Shown: piece by piece, positions 33,117 to 48,211 of the stretch
Layout: each line of letters begins with the position of its first letter
Position numbering within the stretch: the stretch's first letter is position 1
DNA from: a virus
DNA: 50,983 nucleotides
Direction: 5' to 3' (one strand)
Virus record (IMG/VR): IMGVR_UViG_3300027509_000004
Translations under genes and position numbers: made by a program
The notes under the pieces: model-generated
What the model was told of the DNA's origin: nothing
Seen by the model: only the letters and a program-made list of their open reading frames with translations
Databases searched by the model: none

Positions 33117-34842
33117 CGGTAGGGTCGTCCTTCCATTCTTCTGTTGGTGGTTCTTCGTAGGTAAACCCTTCTTGAGGGATGCCTTCTTCAAACCTTCTTG
33201 CTTCTTCTTCAGTTAACTCTCGCATACGGCCTGTGTTGGCTTCGTAGAAGAGGAAACCTGCGGGGCCAGTGCGACCACAGAAGCGGTTCTTTTCTACTTC
33301 CATCACAGTTACGTTACGGATGAAAGGGTCTTTAGCTTTCTTGTCCCGGTTAATCTTAATGACAATGTTGGCTAACTGTTCTACGCCAGCAGTGCCACGT
33401 ATCTGACCTTGACGGTTCTGGTGGATAACTCCAATAAGAGCTATATCCAATTCCATACAGAGGGTCTTCAACTTGGTTGCCGCTTCGTCTAGCTGCTTAC
33501 GTTCGTCACCGTTCTGGTCACTAACAAGGATGCTAAAGTGGTCTAGGAAGATATACTTACAGCCCATGTTGTGCATGAACCTAATGTTAGCTATAACTTC
33601 TTCAATGGTATTAGAACCAAAATGGTCCCACATGACAACTCGGTCATTATCAAGGGTCTCTTCGAACCATCCTCTCATCTGCTCCGTAGTTACTTCCGCC
33701 CGAACATCGGGTAAGTGTAGAGGTTTATTGGCGGTAATCGAAATGAGCCCCAACGCAGTGTCGTCGTTAGGTTCCTCAAGATGCAAAATCCCAATCCCAA
33801 CGTCATCGGAGATTGATAGTATGTTGTGTTGAGACTCTTTAAGGAGACTTGTCTTACCGACTCCTGTCTCGGCTGTAACAACAACCATTTCAGATAGACG
33901 GATGCCGTAAGTTTTTTCATTGAGAGAGTCCCAAGGCCAAGGTATCGAATCATTTTCTTTAGGCTCCTTAATTTTGTCCCAGAGGTCTTTACCTACTACT
34001 AGGCCAGCGGGAGTGTAGGTAGGGGCAGACCACCATTCTTTCATGAAGCTGGCTTGTTTACCCTCTATGAGGTAGTCGTTAGCGTCTTTATATTCATTCA
34101 GAGTGACTATGCGGACCTTACCGATAGGGAACAATTTAGCCACTGCTTGAGCAGCCTCTTGTCCTACATAGTGGGTCACACCTGTAGCAGGGTTTCGTTT
34201 GCCTTCATCTTTGTCAAACACGATAACAATCTCTTTGAAAGAGTTAAGGTAATTGAAGTTAGCGAGGCAGTCCTTAGGGGCAGCCCCAGCAGACGTCACA
34301 GACACTACGGGGTAACGTGACCCTTGCATCTGATAAGCAGCCATAGCGTCACACTCGCCTTCGACAATTGTTATCGCCTTAGCGCTGTTAGCAGGAAAGA
34401 GTTGCTGTCCGAAGAGGCCTATCCGAGAGGTGTCGCCTTTCCACCCAAAAGATTTGGTATGGGAACGATATTTAGCTGCTACATAGTCACCTGTTTCTTT
34501 ATCAAAATAAGGGTATATATGCTTAGTACGGCCTTCTCCAAGATTTTGAGTAACTTGATATTTCTTTGCCGTATCAGCGCTGATGGCTCTATCTTTCAAA
34601 GGGGTGAAGTCTTTAGGTAGTTCAGGGGGGGTTGTCGTCGATTTTTTACTCACTGATGGTTTCTTTTTCTGTTCTGTTTCAGGGTTGGCCTTAGTAGACG
34701 AGGCCTTAGAGGGATTCGAAGTGTGAGTCCCGCAAGAGAAGCAATACGTATGGCCATCATCATAAAGACCACACGCATCGCTTGAAGGACAGTGTTTACA
34801 CGGCCCCTTGCTGACGAGAGTAGATTCACTATTTCTCATCAT
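33109..34842 (-). CDS. bifunctional primase-helicase (T7 gp4-like)
   Basis: N-terminal zinc finger CKHC..CFSC, a TOPRIM-type EGECDAMA..DKDEGK region, and a DnaB/RecA-type Walker A (AETGVGKTS) and Walker B (IFLDHF). Confidence 0.85.
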   Translation of the reverse strand: MMRNSESTLVSKGPCKHCPSSDACGLYDDGHTYCFSCGTHTSNPSKASSTKANPETEQKKKPSVSKKSTTTPPELPKDFTPLKDRAISADTAKKYQVTQNLGEGRTKHIYPYFDKETGDYVAAKYRSHTKSFGWKGDTSRIGLFGQQLFPANSAKAITIVEGECDAMAAYQMQGSRYPVVSVTSAGAAPKDCLANFNYLNSFKEIVIVFDKDEGKRNPATGVTHYVGQEAAQAVAKLFPIGKVRIVTLNEYKDANDYLIEGKQASFMKEWWSAPTYTPAGLVVGKDLWDKIKEPKENDSIPWPWDSLNEKTYGIRLSEMVVVTAETGVGKTSLLKESQHNILSISDDVGIGILHLEEPNDDTALGLISITANKPLHLPDVRAEVTTEQMRGWFEETLDNDRVVMWDHFGSNTIEEVIANIRFMHNMGCKYIFLDHFSILVSDQNGDERKQLDEAATKLKTLCMELDIALIGVIHQNRQGQIRGTAGVEQLANIVIKINRDKKAKDPFIRNVTVMEVEKNRFCGRTGPAGFLFYEANTGRMRELTEEEARRFEEGIPQEGFTYEEPPTEEWKDDPTDE

Positions 34843-35029
34843 TCTTGCCGACTACAGTTGGTTCTTCGTTTAGGAGATGTTCGAAGTCGTCGTCGGTAAA
34901 GTCATCAAAAGCTTCTGGGTCAAAGGAAGGCTCAGAAGCTTTGATACACACCCTACAAGGCTCAATCTTACCAGTGATAGGATGAGTTGTGAAGTGTGGC
35001 ATAAAGGTGTTGCAAATATTACATCGCAT
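34829..35029 (-). CDS. zinc-ribbon protein (66 aa)
   Basis: CNIC...CRVC. Acidic C-terminus. Confidence 0.45.
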   Translation of the reverse strand: MRCNICNTFMPHFTTHPITGKIEPCRVCIKASEPSFDPEAFDDFTDDDFEHLLNEEPTVVGKNDEK

Positions 35030-35083: not shown

Positions 35084-36178
35084 TTAGTAGGGGTATTCGA
35101 GTTTGTCGCAAATAGCTTGAGCGAACAAGATTACATCTTCAATCACTTCACCAGAATTCGCAAAGCTCTCAAACTCTGTCGCACAGATTCTCTCCCCTAT
35201 TTCACCTGTGACCTGAGAAGAGGTAGACCAGCTACAAAACTCCGAGGAAATGCCCCTAGCCGCTCTTACAACACTTCGTACAGACCAGCAAGAAGGACTC
35301 GAACACCGCCTAGCTTGGTCTAAGGTCATAGCACTATAAGGGTTAGCGCCAAGAGTCTTAACTATTTTATCAATGTCAAGGCCTTTAATAGCTTCGACAT
35401 ATGCGTCAATAGTACCGCCTTCAAGGCCGGGACTGGTGTTAATCTCTAAGACGAAGGCGTTTTTCTTAGTACGGTTCCAGATAACATCTACAGCGCCAAA
35501 CACTAAGCGTATATCCTTTACAGCTTGAAGGGCTTGAACAACAACATCTTCAGGACATTCTTCTCTTACACCTTCAACGACATATATAAAACCATTCTTA
35601 TGGTTGCGAACCTTCCAGTCAATACTCTCAGAGTCAATCTCATTAGTACGAATTTGCTCTGTGAGCTCTGGTCTAAGTATCTTCTTTTGTATTCGGATAG
35701 CTTCTCCGTTAAACACATGAACACGATACTCTGAGGACTTAGGCACATACTTAGTATATAGCTTTGCATCAGGAATGTCAAGCTCTTTTTTAGGGTCAAG
35801 TACAACAAGACCTTCGGCAGAGTGCCCTGTGAGCTTGGTACGAGCACAAACAGTGTGCCCCTTGTCGAGCCACTCAACAACCTTTTTTACGTCGGAAGTA
35901 TAAGGCACAAGACGAGCCGTGGAGTTTTTCAAGGCCTCAAAGAAGGTCAGTTTATTGGAGGCCCTAGAGACAACCGTGGGCTCATTGAGCATAGGACAGT
36001 CTACAAACTTTTTACTGGAGCCCCAGTTGATTACTAGGTCACTCTCTCGGTGCTTGTACTTAGACTTCCCATTCACTAGGAGCCTCTTGCCGCCTACAGC
36101 TTCCGCAAGAGAAGCGGCAGAAGAGGAGGCTTGCTTATAAGGGTGAATGAAAATTCTGTTGACGGTAGTTTTTGACAT
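35084..36178 (-). CDS. ATP-grasp ligase (RimK-like) with a ~85-aa Cys/Ser-rich C-terminal extension
   Basis: KYVPKSSEYRVHVF, GAVDVIWN and FVLEINTSPGL match ATP-grasp nucleotide- and Mg-binding elements. Confidence 0.65.
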   Translation of the reverse strand: MSKTTVNRIFIHPYKQASSSAASLAEAVGGKRLLVNGKSKYKHRESDLVINWGSSKKFVDCPMLNEPTVVSRASNKLTFFEALKNSTARLVPYTSDVKKVVEWLDKGHTVCARTKLTGHSAEGLVVLDPKKELDIPDAKLYTKYVPKSSEYRVHVFNGEAIRIQKKILRPELTEQIRTNEIDSESIDWKVRNHKNGFIYVVEGVREECPEDVVVQALQAVKDIRLVFGAVDVIWNRTKKNAFVLEINTSPGLEGGTIDAYVEAIKGLDIDKIVKTLGANPYSAMTLDQARRCSSPSCWSVRSVVRAARGISSEFCSWSTSSQVTGEIGERICATEFESFANSGEVIEDVILFAQAICDKLEYPY

Positions 36179-36179
36179 C

Positions 36180-37511
36180 TTAGTCTAGTCCTTCTCGGTT
36201 AATCCAATATTCTTTGATGATGTTCTCAATTCTTTCGTCAGCTATATCGGCACGAAGACAAGCTACTACAATATTACCTCTTAAGACTCCTCTGTCCCTA
36301 ACATTCCGAGGGAAGTCTAGAAAATCTGACAAAAGGCGGAAGAACTCGTCGGGGTCCTCTCCAGCTGATATATAGTAGGCTGAGTAAGGGTGGCCTTCTT
36401 CAAAAGGCATCGCATCACGATGAATTTGAGCAGGGGCGGTAGGGGTGACAGGGGCAGGGGCGTGAGGGTCAATGAAAGTAGCCTCGTCAATAAAGATATT
36501 GTCTAGAGGCCGGTTAAAGGTTGTCGGAGGTGTTGTCATAGAAACATACTTCTTTTTCTTGCTGACACTACCTTGTTCTGGCTCGTACTTTCCCCAGTCA
36601 ATATCGTAAGCAAGGCATTGAACGACACGTAGAGCATCACGGAGAGAGTTTTCCATCTCCTCTGGTCCCTCGAATAGGTCTCGAGTGGAGGCGTAAAGAA
36701 GAGGAAGATGTTGCCGGATAAAGCCAACAGGAGACAGAGAAGAGAACTGTTGAATGACTTCTGTTGGCTCTGCGATACCGTCAATAGACAAGCGAAGCTC
36801 ATTGATGATAGATAACCACTGAATTAGCTCAGAAGGAGATTCTTGAAGACCACGCCCAGCACGAAATTCAATAGTCCCGAAACTCTTACTTGTTCCACGA
36901 CGCAGAGGCATATAGTTGAGAGCAGAATACCTAAGACCATTATCTACGTTGCGGTCTTCTAGGAAGCTCATCAAGGACTCCACTAAAAGAGGGGCCTGAG
37001 TCGCCTGAAGAGCAAACAAGTTGTGCTCCCGTTCAGCTCCGTTATAGCGGCTCAAAAGAGGCTCTGCTACATAGTACATCAACAAGAGACGGACAAGGGC
37101 TTCTAAGGTCATGTCTTGCACATTCATGTGGACATGAACAGACGTTCGGATAGAAGGGGTTATTGACATGTTGGCTCTCTTAAAAAGGGCAGAGAGCTGT
37201 TCTACAGCGAGAGGGACTTGAGCGTAAGAGATAGGAGACGCGGAGATGAACTCCCGTCCTCCGGGCTCCCCCTTAGTGTTACGAAGAGAGTTATCTTCAA
37301 CAGCTTTCCACAAGCTACCGTGACTTTTCATAGAAGCCGCAGAGGGGTATCGGTCATTAGAGTCTTCCACTTCGACTTCAATACCGAACAAAGTCCCGTT
37401 GACTTCTTCCCGAAAGGCTCCGAAGTATTCCCGAACAGTGGTAGTGTAAGGGTCTGCCCTTTTTAGCCGTGTAGGCTTAGATAGGTTGGTTTTTTTATAG
37501 ATTGTCGGCAC
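36180..37511 (-). CDS. amidoligase (glutamine-synthetase-like COOH-NH2 ligase; Amidoligase_2-type)
   Basis: Motif triad FGIEVEVE / SVHVHMN / TIEFRAGRG, as I recall it for the putative amidoligase family. Confidence 0.55.
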   Translation of the reverse strand: MPTIYKKTNLSKPTRLKRADPYTTTVREYFGAFREEVNGTLFGIEVEVEDSNDRYPSAASMKSHGSLWKAVEDNSLRNTKGEPGGREFISASPISYAQVPLAVEQLSALFKRANMSITPSIRTSVHVHMNVQDMTLEALVRLLLMYYVAEPLLSRYNGAEREHNLFALQATQAPLLVESLMSFLEDRNVDNGLRYSALNYMPLRRGTSKSFGTIEFRAGRGLQESPSELIQWLSIINELRLSIDGIAEPTEVIQQFSSLSPVGFIRQHLPLLYASTRDLFEGPEEMENSLRDALRVVQCLAYDIDWGKYEPEQGSVSKKKKYVSMTTPPTTFNRPLDNIFIDEATFIDPHAPAPVTPTAPAQIHRDAMPFEEGHPYSAYYISAGEDPDEFFRLLSDFLDFPRNVRDRGVLRGNIVVACLRADIADERIENIIKEYWINREGLD

Positions 37512-38319
37512 AAGATACTCCTAATTCTTCCAACGATTCTTTGAGGTAGTGATATTTACCCAAAAGAGATACCTCTTCTCTCTCTTGTGAGTATGTTCCT
37601 ATGTGTCTAGTCAAGTGACTGACTGTGACGTGTCCTACTTCATCTACTGTGAAGGAGAACTGATTACTAAACGCCATAGAGTTCTCTTCAGAACATTCAA
37701 AGAGTCTCTTCAGGCATTCGTCAGGGCTCGGGTAGATTCCGTACAATGAGGAGATGTAACCCCCAGAGAGGATACTACTTCTTTCAAATAAGCCCCTGTC
37801 GTCGTTTGATACAGGCTTAATTTGAATGTTGCGTGTCTGTAGGCCTTGTTTAGTTTGAGTGAAAGGAGCACGAGAACAAGCGTAAGCAATATATCTCTTA
37901 ACTTCTTTACCTTTACGAGAGCTCCAAGAGAAATTACTTAACCCGATATTGCGGATACGGAGGTCTAACTCTTCCACAGGGATAGTCTTTCTGTCGCTCC
38001 TAGGAGGTTCATCTACGAAGTCTTTAGGACATTCAAGGGAAAAACCGGAAGCTGAATACTTAGCCACGTATTCAGGAGAAGCCCGGAAATCATCTAGATT
38101 TTTACGTCGCTCTCTTTGTTGCTCGACAGTGCCAGCCGTGTTGTACAAAGATATTAGCTCTACCTCTGTTCTCTTGACTTCTGGGGGGAGATTCGTAACA
38201 ATCTCCTCTACATAAAAAGGAATGCCATCATAGAAAACAACAGAATCCTTTATCCGCATCCTCCAATCATTAATGGTCCCGTAGTCAGGGGCGAAGCTTT
38301 TTTTCTTTACCTTAGTCAT
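37495..38319 (-). CDS. hypothetical protein (274 aa) inside the ligase block
   Basis: ORF overlaps the upstream gene by 17 nt. No motif recognised. Confidence 0.45.
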   Translation of the reverse strand: MTKVKKKSFAPDYGTINDWRMRIKDSVVFYDGIPFYVEEIVTNLPPEVKRTEVELISLYNTAGTVEQQRERRKNLDDFRASPEYVAKYSASGFSLECPKDFVDEPPRSDRKTIPVEELDLRIRNIGLSNFSWSSRKGKEVKRYIAYACSRAPFTQTKQGLQTRNIQIKPVSNDDRGLFERSSILSGGYISSLYGIYPSPDECLKRLFECSEENSMAFSNQFSFTVDEVGHVTVSHLTRHIGTYSQEREEVSLLGKYHYLKESLEELGVSCADNL

Positions 38320-38353
38320 AACCGCGTATACTCCTTTTAAGTTTTATTTCTAT

Positions 38354-39163
38354 CTAGTGTCCAACAGCCGAAAGAAATGCCGGAACGACGTCAACTGAAC
38401 TTTCGTTTATAATTTCCCGGGCTTTAGTGTGCATAAAGTCTGGCAACACTTCTCCTGCCATCCACTGTTGTGTGGCTTTAACAGTTCGGTCAAAAACTTC
38501 TCCCATAAGGTCAGGAGAGAGGAGCCAAGCGTTAGACAATACACGGTACTCAACTCCGTACTCTTTAGGTCGGAAAGCACCAGCAGCCCCATAAAGAGAC
38601 CGACGCTCTACGTCTTGGTCATAAGTGAGGGAGTAGACACCTAAGGTGGCGTCTAAGTGTTTTACTAAAGAGCAGCAGTCTTTGAAGTGGTTCTCGTTGA
38701 ACGGGTCTGACACCATCTCAGATGTAAACCCTATGTGAATATGACCAGCAGCAGTACGCATAGTCCCTGTAGATACGTCAGGACGAGGGTTGACACCCAT
38801 AGAATATGCGTCATAATCTGGCTCGCAGCCTAGCTCAAGAGCCTCGTAGGGCTGTGCTGAGTAGACCTCTGGACTGAAATGGGCCACAGGGACGCCGGGG
38901 ACAGGGATAATGCCTGAGGGAAGCTGTGAGGTCATTGAAGCAAACACTGATTGGACCTTAGAGACAAAGTCTTCGCGAGTAGTCACAGGGTCAGTGTTAA
39001 ACTCACAGGCCATTCCGTCAATTTGGATTGCCCCGTCTTTAACGACGTGAGGATTTTCCTTGTTGCCGGGCAGTAGGCCGTGAGCACTTACAAACTCTTT
39101 AGTAGAAGAGTCAATTACAAAAACTTCAGGGTCACATCCGATTGTGATTAACTTGTTGGTCAT
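38354..39163 (-). CDS. COOH-NH2 ligase type 2 (phiEco32-like, GCS/GS superfamily)
   Basis: IGCDPEVFV / GHIHIGF / EYRVLSN repeats the E-x-E, H-x-H, E-x-R logic of GS/GCS-type ligases. The N-terminal GCDPE motif is as I recall for the phage COOH-NH2 ligase family. Confidence 0.55.
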   Translation of the reverse strand: MTNKLITIGCDPEVFVIDSSTKEFVSAHGLLPGNKENPHVVKDGAIQIDGMACEFNTDPVTTREDFVSKVQSVFASMTSQLPSGIIPVPGVPVAHFSPEVYSAQPYEALELGCEPDYDAYSMGVNPRPDVSTGTMRTAAGHIHIGFTSEMVSDPFNENHFKDCCSLVKHLDATLGVYSLTYDQDVERRSLYGAAGAFRPKEYGVEYRVLSNAWLLSPDLMGEVFDRTVKATQQWMAGEVLPDFMHTKAREIINESSVDVVPAFLSAVGH

Positions 39164-39206
39164 GATGATAGATTCCTTTCAAAGGGAAGAGGGGTGATTT
39201 AAAAGA

Positions 39207-40280
39207 CTAAGCAGTACGGTTAGACTCGTAAGCTTTTTGGAGTTCGACTTCTTTAGCGCAAGAGCCACAAAGAATAGACTTAGGGGCTACCGCAACAGTG
39301 CCTTTATCGTCAGAGTCCACGTTGGAAGTACACCAACAACAGAAAGCAGTGCCTTTAGAGAAGACTTCCAGTAACTCGCCTTCGCTCATCTCATATGGCT
39401 CAAGGACAAGCCCAACAGAAGAGGCGAGGGAAGACTTGGACGTGTCTACTTTTCTTTTGTTCTGGCTAAATCCGTGAACGTTACTGTAATTATTTCGATA
39501 GCTGTTAGTGACCCCACCACGGTAAGAGGCAGGGGGGAGAGGCTTTTTTGGTTTCACAGTCACCCGTTCTTCTTTACCGAACTCCTCGCCTACGGCAGGG
39601 ACGGCCCATCGAAATTCAACGTTTATGGGCAGAGAGTAGATGGTGTCCAACTTAACACGCCCCTTTCTAGCGCAAGCTAGACGTAGCATGTTGGCCTCAG
39701 AAGCCCAGAATAATTGTTTCTTATCTTCGGATAGAGCGAAACAGAGAGTGCGTTCATCGTTGCGTACCATACAGATTTCATTTGTAGTGAAGTCATAGTA
39801 CACAAGAGCCCAAGCCCCGGAGTAGCCAGAACGAAGCTTAGAAAGAGTATCCTTAATCCCGTTCTCGGAGATATTGTTAAGGATTTCTTCGCTGTCTGTG
39901 CCCCATGACCCGTCAAAGGTTAGGTCGGACAAGTCACTGACAGTGCCATTGTGTGCGCCGACAATGTTCTCTGTCATGAAAGGGTGAGTGTTCTCGAAAA
40001 TATGTTCACCCTTAGTCGCATGACGGTTATGCCCGATAAGAACAGAGTGTGATGTGCTTCGAAGCATCGTCTTGACAGCTTCAATACCTAAAAAGGTTGG
40101 AGCGTCTACAGGAGCTTTGATGATTTTGCAATCATCTGGCTCACGGCTCCCTTTTGCCCAAGGGACAGAGGCTATACCAGTGCCGTGGGCTCCTCTGACA
40201 GTATCAAAGAACAGTAAGTCTTTGAAAGCGTCTACTGATGCTGAATTTAAATCTCCAGCTACTCCTACGTGTCCACACAT
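39207..40280 (-). CDS. class II (Ntn) glutamine amidotransferase-like protein with C-terminal zinc ribbon
   Basis: Starts MCGHVG (catalytic Cys2), then RGAHGTG, GHNRHATKG and AHNGTV. The C-terminus carries CCWC...CGSC. SD GGAG lies 5 nt upstream. Confidence 0.7.
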   Translation of the reverse strand: MCGHVGVAGDLNSASVDAFKDLLFFDTVRGAHGTGIASVPWAKGSREPDDCKIIKAPVDAPTFLGIEAVKTMLRSTSHSVLIGHNRHATKGEHIFENTHPFMTENIVGAHNGTVSDLSDLTFDGSWGTDSEEILNNISENGIKDTLSKLRSGYSGAWALVYYDFTTNEICMVRNDERTLCFALSEDKKQLFWASEANMLRLACARKGRVKLDTIYSLPINVEFRWAVPAVGEEFGKEERVTVKPKKPLPPASYRGGVTNSYRNNYSNVHGFSQNKRKVDTSKSSLASSVGLVLEPYEMSEGELLEVFSKGTAFCCWCTSNVDSDDKGTVAVAPKSILCGSCAKEVELQKAYESNRTA

Positions 40281-40315
40281 ATAGTCTCCATTTTGTTGAT
40301 GTGGTTAATATTAGT

Positions 40316-41137
40316 TTATTTAGTCGCGGCGTACTTCTCAACGAGACTAAAACAGTATCGTTCAAAAGATGAGCCTAACATTCTCTCTGGGTGTGCTTGA
40401 ATGCACAGAGAACGGGTATTATTGCAGTATATGATTTCTGCGTCTTGCCGCATAAGGTCAAAGTCAGACATTTTTCTTTTGGCGAAAAACTCCAGCCTGT
40501 TACGAGCCATAGGAAGAGGCAACTCCTTTTCATGAGGGGAAGCCGAAAGAGTGTCCTTTCCCGTCGTCTTGTTGAAAGTTACCGCCAATATTTCCCTGTT
40601 AGAAACCTTATGGGAAGGCACCATCATTTGATGATGGGTGGAAGTGACTCTTTCGAACACTTGAGGTTCTTTTATCAAACGTACAGCGTGTGGTGATAGA
40701 TGCCGTTTATTGCCGATATTTTGTATCATAGTGCCACCACTAAGAACATTCAGCAGTTGGGCTCCGCGACAAATACCGAGCTTAAACGTGTCCTTTCCGA
40801 GAACAGCTAGGTTCTTCTCATAGAAGTCTCGTTCAGGGGAATAAGCCCTAGTGGCATAGTGCTTCGGTTGATTATAGAGCGAAGGGGATATGTCAGGCCC
40901 ACCAGCAAAGACTATTATATCTGCCTTTGAAGGATTATAGGTAACAGTGTGTCCTCTGATGACTAGCCAATTCTGTATTTCGACACCGGGGTGCCAACTA
41001 GGGTCTCCAATAGACCCCGCACAGAAGACGGCGAGGGGGTTCTTAGTCTTCTCAAAAGGAGACTTTTTAGTTTTTTGTTCAAGCAACTTCTTTCTCCTTT
41101 GCTCTTTCTTTCTTCTTTTTCTTTTGGACATTTGCAT
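40316..41137 (-). CDS. class I glutamine amidotransferase / peptidase C26 (gamma-glutamyl hydrolase-like)
   Basis: GGPDISPSLY, GICRGAQLLNV (nucleophile elbow) and TSTHHQ, as in PuuD-type enzymes. Basic K/R-rich N-terminal tail. Confidence 0.65.
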   Translation of the reverse strand: MQMSKRKRRKKEQRRKKLLEQKTKKSPFEKTKNPLAVFCAGSIGDPSWHPGVEIQNWLVIRGHTVTYNPSKADIIVFAGGPDISPSLYNQPKHYATRAYSPERDFYEKNLAVLGKDTFKLGICRGAQLLNVLSGGTMIQNIGNKRHLSPHAVRLIKEPQVFERVTSTHHQMMVPSHKVSNREILAVTFNKTTGKDTLSASPHEKELPLPMARNRLEFFAKRKMSDFDLMRQDAEIIYCNNTRSLCIQAHPERMLGSSFERYCFSLVEKYAATK

Positions 41138-41144
41138 TTTTCTC

Positions 41145-41172
41145 TTGACAAATCTGAAATATGTGGTATAAT
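41145..41172 (+). promoter_or_regulatory. consensus sigma70-type promoter P2 (TTGACA-16 nt-TGgTATAAT), antisense to the surrounding operon
   Basis: TTGACA 41145-41150 and TATAAT 41167-41172, with an extended -10 TG at 41164-41165. It sits on the plus strand between two minus-strand genes. Confidence 0.5.
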
Positions 41173-41216
41173 ACCTTTAAGGGGCAGAGTTAAGGAACCT
41201 AATAATAGGCACTAAC

Positions 41217-41666
41217 TTATCTCTTTGTCCAATCCCCGCTTTCAATAAGCGACTCCACTCGAAAATCCCTGTTATAGTAGTAGATTTCAACAGGTTCCTG
41301 TAAAGTGTGAGGGGTAGTCTCCGCTCTTAAGTAGAGGGAAGCGTCTTGTCTCTCAAAGTAATACCCTTCGAGACCATCAAGACTTTGCCCTAAAGTTGGC
41401 TCAACAATCTCGTAGATTTCAACTACTACAGGTTCAACAGTAGTCGTGTCAACCTCAGGATGTTCAGCTACTAGGCCGGGGTAGCCTCCGTGTAACCCAA
41501 AGAGGATACCATCAACGGTATCTTTTCCAATGAATTTGGCACGAGAGCCTAGCCTTAGGGCTTCGTAGTTGCCACATCCTTCACGGAGAGTACCGTATAC
41601 AGCGAACTTATCGCCAACAGTTAGGGTGTTAGAGGAGGGTGTGATAGATTGGTTATAGGCTGTCAT
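41217..41666 (-). CDS. gamma-glutamyl cyclotransferase-like (GGCT / AIG2 family)
   Basis: FAVYGTLREG ... GYPGLV ... VVVEIYEI ... LDGLEGY matches the YGTL / E signature of GGCT and GGACT proteins. Confidence 0.65.
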   Translation of the reverse strand: MTAYNQSITPSSNTLTVGDKFAVYGTLREGCGNYEALRLGSRAKFIGKDTVDGILFGLHGGYPGLVAEHPEVDTTTVEPVVVEIYEIVEPTLGQSLDGLEGYYFERQDASLYLRAETTPHTLQEPVEIYYYNRDFRVESLIESGDWTKR

Positions 41667-41669
41667 AGG

Positions 41670-42071
41670 TTATCGGTCCTTGTTCATAAAATCTTGTTCC
41701 CAGTATTGGGGGCCTACTATAACTGGGTGGCCATTGAGGGTTAGGTCTTCCGCTATTCTCCATTTGAGTTCATCGAGAGATAGTTGTACGATGTCCCAAT
41801 CGTCTGTGAAGGCGAAATAGGTTGGCTCTACTTTTGCAGACTCAATCTTTCGGGGCTCCATTGCAGAAGTCTCTAAGCAAAAGAGAAAGAGCTCAATCTC
41901 ATCAGAGGCTAAGACATACTTAGGGTCTCCTTCGTAGAGAGAGGCCTCAAGAGGAGGAATTTCCGTAGGCTCATCGGGGTCGATTAAAACGAAATCATCC
42001 ACTTCAGGCCGAGAGATAAACTCACGGTCTCTAGGGTCGGCCTTAGGGAAAGTGCTGGTGACTTTTGCCAT
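41670..42071 (-). CDS. hypothetical acidic protein (133 aa)
   Basis: ORF only. D/E-rich. Confidence 0.4.
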   Translation of the reverse strand: MAKVTSTFPKADPRDREFISRPEVDDFVLIDPDEPTEIPPLEASLYEGDPKYVLASDEIELFLFCLETSAMEPRKIESAKVEPTYFAFTDDWDIVQLSLDELKWRIAEDLTLNGHPVIVGPQYWEQDFMNKDR

Positions 42072-42076
42072 ATAGG

Positions 42077-43660
42077 CTATCCTTTCTTGTAGTTAGGGTT
42101 AACACGGCCCATAGGCAGCAACCAGTGACGGTACGCCCCACTGTAGTCAGAAGACCTGTAGTTTCCGTTTAGGTACGGCATACCGTCTTCTGTTAAAGGG
42201 ACAAAGCCGAGAGCTAGCGCTTCCGCAAGGTTTGTTCTTATCTGGAATCTTCCCTCTCCTCTTGTACGAAGTATCATAACCTGTGTGGCAGACCTCGTAT
42301 CGTAGCAAGCGGAAGCAGAGAGAGCAGGAGCTCCATTATTCTTGAAGCCGTATAGTCCTCCTACTCGAGGCATATTTTCTGGACTGAAACTGTAGCTAAC
42401 CTTAGACCTTGTAGCTAAGAGAGTCTCATCAGTGACAGCGTCTCTTGTAGGAGGCATCTCGAAGGCAGGTTCCGATTGACGCTCAAGCTGTTTTTCACTG
42501 ACAGTTGTCTTGAAGTATAGGGCAGACGTCTTTTTGTCAGTTAGGGCTAAGTGCCAGCCTTCTTTTTGGAATATGTCGCCATACTTTTTGTGTATCTCAA
42601 GAGGCATGGAGAAGAGAACTCCCGTAGTACACTGTCCTCCGCTTTTGTTTGTGTAACAATCTCTATCTAATTCCTTTTTTAAGGCCTTCACAATATCTTC
42701 GGCCACTTTCTCCTCTAAGAGGAAATTTGTGGTTCTGTGATTGAAGAAGAAAGAAGAGGCACCACAACAACTTAACAAGCCTTGATGAGTTGTGCCTATT
42801 TTGACATATCGAGTGGGGGTGCGATACCCTGCCAGCTCATCCATTATAGTGTTCATACGGCTGTTGTTTCCAGACTCCATTACGTGCTTTCGGAGACGAG
42901 ATGTTGATGATAGATTCTGCAAAGGGCTGAAGTCTCCTCGTAGGCTGTCCCGAAGAGTGAACGCCTTAGGGCGTTTTTTCTTGTCGCCGAACTTTTCCGG
43001 CCAAGAAGTCTTAAGGCCAAAACAAGCCTCTAGGTCGGACATTGCAAATCGAGAGATGAAGGTAGGTTTAGACAAGGGGTAGTCCTTTCTTAGTAGGTCA
43101 GTGTAAACGTCAGAATCGGGGGTAGATTTTCCTATATAACAGGACTCGCTAGGCTTCCTCGCGCTTAAATAGTAATAAGAACCTTTATGGAAGCAGTAAC
43201 GACCCCCAAGAAGATTCCCTGAGGTCACTTTAAAAATTATGTTTTCAGGAACTTCGTCGGCGGTGAGGTATTCGCCCTCTTTTCCGGGATAGAGCCCGGG
43301 GCGTCTAAAGGCCTTTAAAGGTTCTTCCCTTACTATGCTGGTGAGAGCTTGACGAGCCATTTCAGGAGAAATAGGCACTCTTACTTTGTCCATGTCTCTT
43401 TTCAAGATGCCTGTAAGAGTCTTATAGAAACGTGTCCCTCTCTGCCCTAAACCAAGAGCAGAAGAAGAGCGTATATAAAAACGAACACCCGGCTTATTAA
43501 TTTCATCCACATGAAGACGGTGAGGGTGACGGACAGAAGCAAAAATAGAGGACATAATAATAGACACCTTCAAGAAAGGGAGAGAAGAGGGAATAAGGTC
43601 GAACACCAACATAGCCCGAGGAAGACTGAAAAGCTTCAGTAGCCGCTTATCAAGACTCAC
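42077..43660 (-). CDS. large hypothetical protein (492-527 aa)
   Basis: Long ORF; either a GTG start at 43660 or ATG 43555 (MSSIFASVRH..). No motif recognised. Confidence 0.5.
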   Translation of the reverse strand: MSLDKRLLKLFSLPRAMLVFDLIPSSLPFLKVSIIMSSIFASVRHPHRLHVDEINKPGVRFYIRSSSALGLGQRGTRFYKTLTGILKRDMDKVRVPISPEMARQALTSIVREEPLKAFRRPGLYPGKEGEYLTADEVPENIIFKVTSGNLLGGRYCFHKGSYYYLSARKPSESCYIGKSTPDSDVYTDLLRKDYPLSKPTFISRFAMSDLEACFGLKTSWPEKFGDKKKRPKAFTLRDSLRGDFSPLQNLSSTSRLRKHVMESGNNSRMNTIMDELAGYRTPTRYVKIGTTHQGLLSCCGASSFFFNHRTTNFLLEEKVAEDIVKALKKELDRDCYTNKSGGQCTTGVLFSMPLEIHKKYGDIFQKEGWHLALTDKKTSALYFKTTVSEKQLERQSEPAFEMPPTRDAVTDETLLATRSKVSYSFSPENMPRVGGLYGFKNNGAPALSASACYDTRSATQVMILRTRGEGRFQIRTNLAEALALGFVPLTEDGMPYLNGNYRSSDYSGAYRHWLLPMGRVNPNYKKG

Positions 43661-48113: not shown

Positions 48114-48211
48114 AAAGCGGAACCCGCATAGAATCCTTTTGAGACGATTCAAAGCGGAACCTTAAAAGAAATATTCAAGTATTATCATTTTATGCTTGAC
48201 AAAGCGGAACC
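48114..48211 (+). promoter_or_regulatory. three direct copies of AAAGCGGAACC (operator-like), the third inside the spacer of promoter P3
   Basis: Exact 11-mers at 48114-48124, 48151-48161 and 48201-48211. Confidence 0.7.

Follow-up and report, generated by a model that had tools for sequence, protein, structure and literature searches.

The window analysed here, a stretch of viral DNA of 50,983 nucleotides (IMG/VR record IMGVR_UViG_3300027509_000004), is essentially a whole phage genome, and seven genes on its minus strand (35084-41666) form a block that is almost certainly a metagenome-derived copy of a cassette already described in podoviruses. That cassette has been named a 'gamma-glutamyl amide / unusual peptide bond operon' and a 'seven-gene peptidoglycan modification cassette' (PMC5498523, PMC4819975, PMC11945000, PMC10580990), and a description of it by Hardies (2013) is cited in two later papers (PMC4819975, PMC5498523). 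It was listed as conserved in RIO-1, phiEco32, 7-11, PA11, tf, MR299-2, LUZ24, PaP3 and CW02 (Duhaime 2017, PMC5498523) and is also carried by PSA-HP1 (PMC5498523), where transcriptomics showed its genes to be 'expressed immediately' upon infection (PMC7082346). The block shares with it the enzyme families, the core order (class-II glutamine amidotransferase [GAT-II], COOH-NH2 ligase, small conserved protein, amidoligase, ATP-grasp ligase), the position upstream of primase/helicase and the variable accessories, a C26 peptidase and a GGCT cyclotransferase. Since the same gene set had already been published, the novelty implied by the initial annotation, which was made from the sequence alone, is not upheld. 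The chemistry of the cassette is probably amide ligation together with gamma-glutamyl cleavage. The reading that we favour, and to which we give an even chance, is a cytoplasmic, ATP-driven module for gamma-glutamyl ligation and trimming with a soluble amine or peptide as its target.

The seven genes are listed below by descending coordinate, with their profile matches in brackets.

41217-41666, minus strand: GGCT, a cyclotransferase of the GGACT/AIG2 type, 149 residues (GGACT, 7.7e-15; phrog_2520, 1.3e-15)
40316-41137, minus strand: C26, a Peptidase_C26 / class-I glutamine amidotransferase (GATase), 273 residues (Peptidase_C26, 2e-17; phrog_7218, 4.6e-29)
39207-40280, minus strand: GAT-II, a stand-alone Ntn class-II glutamine amidotransferase, 357 residues (GATase_6, 1.2e-10; phrog_4736, 2.9e-63)
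38354-39163, minus strand: COOH-NH2 ligase type 2, 269 residues (PF14395 COOH-NH2_lig, 2.2e-7; phrog_3815, 8.2e-73)
37495-38319, minus strand: partner protein, 274 residues (hidden Markov model [HMM] of its own family)
36180-37511, minus strand: Amidoligase_2 protein, 443 residues, GTG start (PF12224, 2.3e-4; phrog_7469, 2.9e-44)
35084-36178, minus strand: ATP-grasp ligase, RimK/MptN-like, 364 residues (Pfam RimK, 1.6e-3; phrog_2599, 1.1e-74)

All seven open reading frames (ORFs) are co-directional, and their junctions range from a 17-nt overlap (amidoligase/partner protein) to a 79-nt gap (C26/GGCT), as had been annotated. An independent gene call on the corresponding ENA metagenome contig (ERZ27241782 k141_383862, 50,997 bp) returned the same seven genes, with the sole exception that C26 was given a start further downstream and a length of 256 residues. 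In the window, structural genes occupy the plus strand up to ~22.5 kb and are followed by a long leftward early/replication arm on the minus strand. The cassette, which makes up about 13% of the 51-kb genome, is placed in this leftward operon, just upstream of the genes for primase/helicase and a family-A DNA polymerase, and a ribonucleotide reductase (RNR) is encoded nearby. Packing was equally tight on both sides of the block, at the 133- and 527-residue genes upstream (gaps of 3 and 5 nt) and at a 66-residue gene and the primase gene downstream, and gene spacing therefore does not delimit the block.

Families were assigned using Pfam cut-offs and PHROGs, matches to known enzymes were judged by NCBIfam equivalog cut-offs, and motif conservation was checked against homologues from related loci. 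The enzyme families proposed in the initial annotation were borne out by the Pfam and PHROGs profiles, and that of the COOH-NH2 ligase also by Foldseek; the motifs and catalytic residues that had been quoted (Cys2 of the amidotransferase, Cys-His of C26 and the ligase motifs) were present and conserved in relatives. The block is confirmed as real and rightly read at the family level, its gamma-glutamyl/amide theme holds, and its place in the early/replication arm was likewise correct, with primase/helicase and DNA polymerase adjoining.

The anchor of the cassette is the COOH-NH2 ligase, which matched the phiEco32-type Pfam family PF14395 at 30.8 bits (cut-off 25) and whose DPE, EFN, GHxH and EYR motifs were invariant among relatives. 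Its AlphaFold2 model (pLDDT 94.7) gave best Foldseek matches (E 7e-5 to 1e-2) to plant glutamate-cysteine ligase (GCL), YbdK, glutamine synthetases (GS), GmaS (gamma-glutamylmethylamide synthetase) and a GS that glutamylates 1-naphthylamine; E values against 2gwc, 1r8g, 1tt4 and 4lnn were 7e-5 to 1e-3. These neighbours, at a TM-score of about 0.5 and about 11% identity, all phosphorylate the gamma-carboxylate of Glu and couple Glu to a small amine, and neither PafA nor Dop was found among the top 50 fold matches. Judged by the model, the predicted activity is that of a minimal ATP-dependent carboxylate-amine ligase of the GCL/YbdK/GS fold, and the fold points to glutamate-amine ligation.

This GS/GCL-fold comparison was made on the COOH-NH2 ligase, and the amidoligase was placed by sequence families and motifs. 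The latter fell just under its Pfam cut-off (21.6 bits vs 22), with phrog_7469 backing the assignment, and its motifs GxExExE, HVH, YxxxN and EFR were invariant among relatives. Its catalytic domain spans approximately residues 24-302. A C-terminal extension of ~130 residues (~314-443), consisting of a Pro/Thr-rich linker and a small domain, was specific to the window; the closest relative, encoded at locus L133 (a Logan contig), has 326 residues, aligns only with residues 5-313 and is followed by a separate ORF of 60 residues. Searches of PDB sequences by phmmer and profiles with the amidoligase, the COOH-NH2 ligase and the partner protein gave nothing usable.

The ATP-grasp ligase also scored below its Pfam cut-off (RimK, 18.5 bits vs 21) and was backed by phrog_2599, and the motifs E(Y/F)RVHV and (L/V)E(I/V)N were conserved among relatives. 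Its catalytic domain covers approximately residues 5-265, and the C-terminal extension is common to the close relatives at L133 and L004 (IMG/VR UViG_3300004883_000001). The best NCBIfam match was MptN, an alpha-L-glutamate ligase (5e-7, far below the cut-off); D-Ala-D-Ala ligase and microviridin maturases were also among the top matches, all of which missed their cut-offs by hundreds of bits. When the window protein was aligned with PA11 (L002, 5482-6366) by tblastn, the alignment stayed in one frame past the stop of gp008 (6234) into gp009, which suggests a sequencing or annotation problem in that record, or a split gene.

On the amidotransferase and cleavage side, GAT-II kept the motifs of its relatives, namely Cys2 (MCG; MCGHVG here), HNRxAT (HNRHAT here), HNG and DSE (TDSE here). 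The Arg, Asn-Gly and Asp residues by which GlmS binds the free alpha-carboxylate and alpha-amine of its glutamine substrate were retained as well, which is consistent with either amidation or removal of a gamma-glutamyl group. Near its C-terminus (residues ~314-341) lies a CxxC...CxxC zinc ribbon, conserved in most cassette GAT-II proteins, and the window protein is shorter by the ~80-100 residues that separate the ribbon from the Ntn domain in relatives 435-497 residues long. In C26, a Cys-His-Glu triad was found in the conserved motifs GICRG (Cys) and HPE (His-Glu), and HHQ was also present; its best NCBIfam match, gamma-glutamyl-CDP-amidate hydrolase, was hundreds of bits below the cut-off. 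A Lys/Arg-rich N-terminal tail on this protein (residues 4-35, SKRKRRKKEQRRKKLLEQKTKK...) has a similar counterpart in L004 and is missing from most relatives; the contig's own C26 start, 17 codons downstream, would cut roughly half of it. The GGCT motifs YGTLR, VVEIYE (with the catalytic Glu) and LEGY were conserved. None of the seven block proteins had a transmembrane segment or a hydrophobic segment above 1.6.

The protein between the two GS-fold ligases had been labelled an orphan. A word-indexed homologue search returned the protein itself alone, and a full HMMER scan of 1.84 billion representative proteins was needed to find its 106 relatives of 190-296 residues. An HMM of this family found a member in 111 loci, in 106 of which it lay directly between the COOH-NH2 ligase and amidoligase genes, and most loci without a match still showed a gap of 500-750 nt at that position. 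Median junctions to the two ligase genes were -4 and -12 nt; these overlaps at both ends suggest translational coupling. The partner protein is a core, phage-only member of the cassette, and we infer that it serves as a dedicated adaptor or scaffold for the two ligases. Its AlphaFold2 model (pLDDT 91.9) had no PDB fold neighbour at E<0.1 and resembled uncharacterised phage proteins only, for example one from CW02; no Pfam family and no PDB sequence relative was found either. The conserved residues (R22, G126, N129, R150, Q158-G159, Y196-P197 and E261), mainly Arg, Asn, Gln, Gly and Pro, form no obvious catalytic triad. A Pup- or ubiquitin-like tag was ruled out for this protein, since it is a folded domain of 190-275 residues whose C-terminus is not conserved among relatives; the peptide-tag idea, taken as a tag activated at its C-terminus, thus fails for the one candidate examined. 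No informative fused domain came to light when the partner family, and longer homologues of GAT-II, the ATP-grasp ligase, the amidoligase and GGCT, were scanned with Pfam.

We then applied the family HMMs to 131 loci anchored on the COOH-NH2 ligase, 56 of which had enough flank for counts. GAT-II was found in 54 of these 56, the ATP-grasp ligase and the amidoligase in 53 each, the partner family in 48, C26 in 48 and GGCT in 19. GAT-II, the COOH-NH2 ligase, the partner, the amidoligase and the ATP-grasp ligase are the core members, and C26 and GGCT are variable accessories; of the three gamma-glutamyl-type hydrolases originally counted, only GAT-II thus belongs to the core. The expected co-occurrence as a unit in related phages was observed, with the exact seven-gene order of the window in nine of the fully flanked loci and the same order minus GGCT in 16 more. 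L004 and L133 had the identical seven-gene order followed by the 66-residue gene, primase/helicase and DNA polymerase; their cassette proteins were 32-66% identical to those of the window, and their replication proteins 64-76%. Against the first-sampled Zobellviridae-type relatives (L001-L016, including PA11), window proteins showed 27-57% identity, rising to as much as 66% with L133. The window differs from the podovirus cassettes in its longer partner (274 vs ~190 residues), shorter GAT-II, ~130 additional C-terminal residues on the amidoligase and an antisense consensus promoter.

Megablast of the block against GenBank phages gave no nucleotide-level match. By tblastn, the COOH-NH2 ligase matched 319 GenBank phage records at up to 47% identity. 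The best records were Zobellviridae (PA11, TC6, O4, CW02, CVT22, Klyazma and oyster-metagenome phages) and Pseudoalteromonas phage Slicky01; more distant matches included a further group of Pseudomonas podoviruses, and Escherichia phages accounted for 94 of the 319 records. The named hosts of the matching phages were Gram-negative. The annotations of PA11, Slicky01 and an oyster phage give the order GAT-II, COOH-NH2 ligase, small hypothetical protein, amidoligase and ATP-grasp ligase, with primase/helicase a few small genes further on.

The COOH-NH2 ligase family comprised 3,067 clusters at 90% identity in a 5.8-billion-protein collection (contigs of about 52 kb at most in the 120 clusters listed) and occurred on at least 580 IMG/VR contigs. 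Among 185,579 bacterial and archaeal species, represented by one genome each, 37 contigs matched, all of them contigs of metagenome-assembled genomes (MAGs). About half of these were 44-54 kb long, and where enough flank was available the remaining cassette genes were usually found in it, in many cases accompanied by phage genes for primase and polymerase. The two long contigs examined look like large phages, one having RNR, primase and helicase genes of phage type and the other a PurZ-like gene. A cellular origin of the 37 matches was rejected, as all were phage-like MAG contigs, and because matches sit on phage-like contigs only, the family looks phage-exclusive. On a 176-kb contig binned as an archaeon MAG (L050, 9995-13539), the genes directly after that of the COOH-NH2 ligase are dehydrogenase-like and PurZ-like (2-aminoadenine pathway), with GAT-II and amidoligase genes 5 kb upstream; this contig is probably a large phage with Z-base DNA and a rearranged cassette.

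A mechanism can be proposed from these families and folds. The COOH-NH2 ligase and the amidoligase would each convert a carboxylate into an acyl-phosphate with ATP and join it to an amine, and the two may cooperate via the phage-only partner. To our knowledge, every characterised relative of the GS/GCL-fold ligases uses the gamma-carboxylate of Glu. The RimK/MptN-like ATP-grasp ligase would add a further alpha-linked residue, probably Glu. GAT-II could pass ammonia from Gln to an acyl-phosphate, giving an amide, or take off a gamma-glutamyl group with a free head, and the accessory C26 and GGACT-type enzymes would strip gamma-glutamyl groups from amines. As acceptor we consider most likely an amine or short peptide that is soluble in the cytoplasm, for example a polyamine-type amine or a precursor resembling a stem peptide, and we regard DNA or a ubiquitin-like protein tag as less probable. 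Polyglutamylated folate, which had been considered on the strength of a supposed DHFR gene, lost that link, as no DHFR match was found among the ORFs scanned with Pfam and PHROGs, nor by a simple six-frame motif search.

All seven proteins are predicted to be soluble with intact active-site motifs. A soluble acceptor is favoured because the ligase fold neighbours act on small amines, because the GAT-II pocket fits a free Glu head, and because the alpha-amine of the gamma-glutamyl group must be free for GGACT chemistry. By analogy with these enzymes, we place a soluble small acceptor just short of an even chance. Several observations weigh against the module as we favour it. No enzyme of the block reached, or came near, an NCBIfam equivalog cut-off, and with all NCBIfam matches below cut-off, specificity is not transferable from a known enzyme. 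The small-acceptor argument itself draws on relatives as distant as the fold neighbours described above. An operon that both makes and hydrolyses one kind of bond would seem futile if no steps lay in between and the substrates were the same, and no oxidoreductase or transferase is encoded in the block. The zinc ribbon on GAT-II, the basic tail of C26 and the adjoining acidic-tail protein fit a macromolecular target equally well, and the partner protein has conserved Arg, Asn and Gln yet no recognisable catalytic or binding fold. Finally, our full-text literature searches found no experimental substrate, product, structure or mutant phenotype for any cassette member, in agreement with the earlier statement that no substrate had been demonstrated.

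Several cellular systems, namely PuuA/PuuD, PauA, GshA/GshB/ChaC, EgtA/EgtC and BtrJ/BtrG, pair these families around small-molecule gamma-glutamyl amides, and GGACT-type enzymes act on gamma-glutamyl-amines. A GS-fold ligase is paired with a C26 gamma-glutamyl hydrolase in the E. coli Puu pathway (the gamma-glutamylputrescine synthetase PuuA with PuuD), and the gamma-glutamylpolyamine synthetases of Pseudomonas and Streptomyces (PauA, GlnA2/3) are of a similar kind; amine-glutamylating GS homologues are also among the fold neighbours of the phage ligase. The block differs in having no PuuB/PuuC-type oxidoreductase, a much smaller ligase (269 residues), extra ligases and the partner. No oxidoreductase domain was found in the block, no NCBIfam match came near the PuuA or PuuD cut-offs, and HMM searches against the PDB detected no sequence relation. 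The glutathione cycle likewise combines a GCL-fold ligase, an ATP-grasp enzyme (GshB) and a cyclotransferase, and plant GCL and YbdK were the best fold matches; however, the window cyclotransferase is of the GGACT and not the GGCT/ChaC type, and the second GS-fold ligase and GAT-II have no counterpart there. No equivalog match to GshA or GshB was obtained: the two GS-fold ligases had no NCBIfam match, and those of the ATP-grasp ligase were more than 300 bits below their cut-offs.

Butirosin synthesis (BtrJ, an ATP-grasp enzyme, and BtrG, GGCT-like) and ergothioneine synthesis (EgtA and EgtC) resemble the block in that a ligase puts on a gamma-Glu that is later removed, whereas the block has no carrier protein, pyridoxal phosphate enzyme, methyltransferase or sulfoxide synthase; EgtC did give a weak NCBIfam match in the block, far below the family cut-off. 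Pupylation offers a further likeness, since two paralogous GS-fold enzymes flank the gene of a non-enzymatic protein and a deamidase/ligase logic is possible. However, the middle protein is folded and has no conserved C-terminal Gln/Glu or Gly-Gly, PafA and Dop are not fold neighbours, and no proteasome genes are present.

The sequences around the block hold the following further features.

34829-35029, minus strand: zinc-ribbon/acidic-tail protein, 66 residues (iterative HMM family)
41145-41172, plus strand: sigma-70 consensus promoter (12/12 consensus match)
41670-42071 and 42077-43660, minus strand: two upstream genes of 133 and 527 residues (family-less ORFs)

The 66-residue protein, encoded between the ATP-grasp and primase/helicase genes, begins with a CxxC...CxxC zinc ribbon at its N-terminus and ends in a strongly acidic tail. 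An iterative HMM found members of its family in 33 loci, and their C-termini were not conserved. Of 63 loci, 26 had a member between the genes for the ATP-grasp ligase and primase, compared with none of the 15 in which the ATP-grasp gene was relocated (Fisher p=0.0016, uncorrected for phylogeny). The protein is possibly cassette-associated, and it could be an acceptor for the RimK-like ligase or a mere replisome accessory. The 133- and 527-residue proteins had no Pfam, PHROG or NCBIfam match, and homologues were found only in the closest relatives (~45% identity in L133, and a weak match of the 527-residue protein in L004). Their genes are co-directional with the cassette but outside the conserved set.

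The gap between GGCT and C26 holds a perfect sigma-70 consensus with an extended -10 element, TTGACA-16-TGgTATAAT (TTGACAAATCTGAAATATGTGGTATAAT), antisense to the cassette. L133/L134 and L004 carry it at the equivalent position and facing the same way, although the flanking proteins are only 40-66% identical, and ~35 nt downstream of it were also conserved between the window and L133. The element was not found in more distant cassettes, and its status as a general cassette feature was rejected in favour of one confined to the closest clade; Rfam gave no match around it. Three such 12/12 sites occur in the window, all on the plus strand (2196, 41145 and 48196), and transcription of the plus-strand late genes, across the ends of the contig, could start from the one at 48196. 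In 2.1 Mb of related loci, 59 such sites were found over both strands. A consensus promoter scan of the window was not enriched (22 sites vs 16.2 +/- 4.1 expected).

The explanation already in print is that the cassette modifies peptidoglycan or its precursors, with the ligases rebuilding or decorating the stem peptide and the GATases amidating it, so that an altered wall blocks superinfection or readies the cell for lysis. Later papers relay this proposal from Iyer (2009) and Hardies (2013) (PMC5498523, PMC11945000, PMC10580990), and two of them, both genome papers, trace the link with superinfection exclusion to Iyer (PMC11945000, PMC10580990). The stem peptide does contain a gamma-D-Glu bond and a D-Ala-D-Ala bond of ATP-grasp make, and the ATP-grasp ligase had weak matches to D-Ala-D-Ala ligases. 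A ligase working with a GATase follows the amidation logic of MurT/GatD, the named hosts are Gram-negative, and the early expression seen in PSA-HP1 would suit superinfection exclusion. The block, however, contains no Mur-ligase Pfam match, signal peptide, membrane segment, transferase or flippase, a finding with which cytoplasmic precursors are still compatible. All fold neighbours of the GS-fold ligase use free L-Glu and a small amine as substrates, and judging from the conserved Asp and Arg, GAT-II and GGACT chemistry would need a free alpha-amine, whereas the D-iGlu of the stem peptide is acylated by L-Ala. We consider this explanation unlikely, although it ranks first among the alternatives. 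Occurrence in archaeal viruses was dropped as an argument against it, as the host assignment is computational only (PMC11706807).

Modification of a protein comes next, and we regard it as about equally unlikely. Here, a protein of the host or the phage would receive Glu or short peptides from the ligases, much as S6 is polyglutamylated by RimK or proteins are pupylated, and the hydrolases would act as erasers or as deamidases that mature a tag. The 66-residue protein is a candidate acceptor through its co-occurrence with a downstream ATP-grasp gene (26/63 vs 0/15), but the C-termini of its family vary and the association carries no correction for phylogeny. The ATP-grasp ligase is RimK-like, and papers of the Aravind group predict protein targets for phage ATP-grasp ligases (PMC4431377). 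Both the zinc ribbon of GAT-II and the basic tail of C26 hint at binding to a macromolecule, whereas a free Glu head, rather than a Glu embedded in a protein, fits the pockets of GAT-II and GGACT. PafA and Dop have the GS fold, but neither was among the top 50 fold matches, and the partner has no conserved C-terminal residue.

A role in nucleic-acid modification, in which the ligases would amidate or extend carboxyl- or amino-bearing bases of phage DNA or host tRNA and so protect against nucleases, is very unlikely. In its favour, some viral contigs carry thymidine-hypermodification genes together with genes for amidoligases and amidotransferases (PMC8989533). The cassette lies among replication genes, a zinc ribbon and a basic tail are present, and the cassette genes of L050 adjoin a PurZ-like gene. 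However, Pfam and PHROGs scans of window ORFs, which covered ORFs below 90 residues and the plus-strand structural genes only in part, gave no 5-HMUDK, aGPT-Pplase, dUMP/dCMP hydroxymethylase, TET/JBP or DpdA-type gene, and the DNA-base adduct raised in the initial annotation accordingly found no 5-HMUDK, aGPT-Pplase or hydroxymethylase to go with it. We know of no GS-fold ligase that acts on nucleic acids, and no reports of modified DNA in cassette phages were met, though no search was aimed at such reports. Equally improbable is an auxiliary metabolic set that rewires nitrogen and glutamate, freeing Glu, NH3 and amines from glutamine, glutathione and gamma-glutamyl-polyamines for nucleotide synthesis, with ligases that have no single dedicated product: three enzymes do release Glu or 5-oxoproline, an RNR is encoded nearby and 'host material recycling' has been discussed for the cassette (PMC5498523), but such a role would not account for three ligases that spend ATP and a dedicated phage-only partner, in an order that hundreds of phages have preserved. 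Nor does the COOH-NH2 ligase family, in which cellular members are absent, resemble the usual borrowed metabolic gene.

What is new here is comparative detail, namely the partner protein, the phage-only distribution, the fold assignment, the 66-residue protein and the antisense promoter. The window gives no easier test of function than phages already in culture, and the unit to reconstitute is ligase, partner, ligase. The cassette, first noticed about 2008-2009, is retained by hundreds of podoviruses of marine, freshwater, gut and clinical origin, among them therapeutic-candidate phages of Pseudomonas, E. coli and Klebsiella. A bolder form of the ligation and trimming module, which we think improbable, is a phage-exclusive enzyme complex built around the partner, with its predicted fold unmatched among solved structures, that would inactivate or divert a pool of host amines as soon as infection begins. 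It could gamma-glutamylate and trim polyamines that otherwise stall phage replication; in another version, it could polyglutamylate the 66-residue zinc-ribbon protein into a polyanionic effector. Either version, if true, would represent host-takeover or counter-defence chemistry not yet known in phages.

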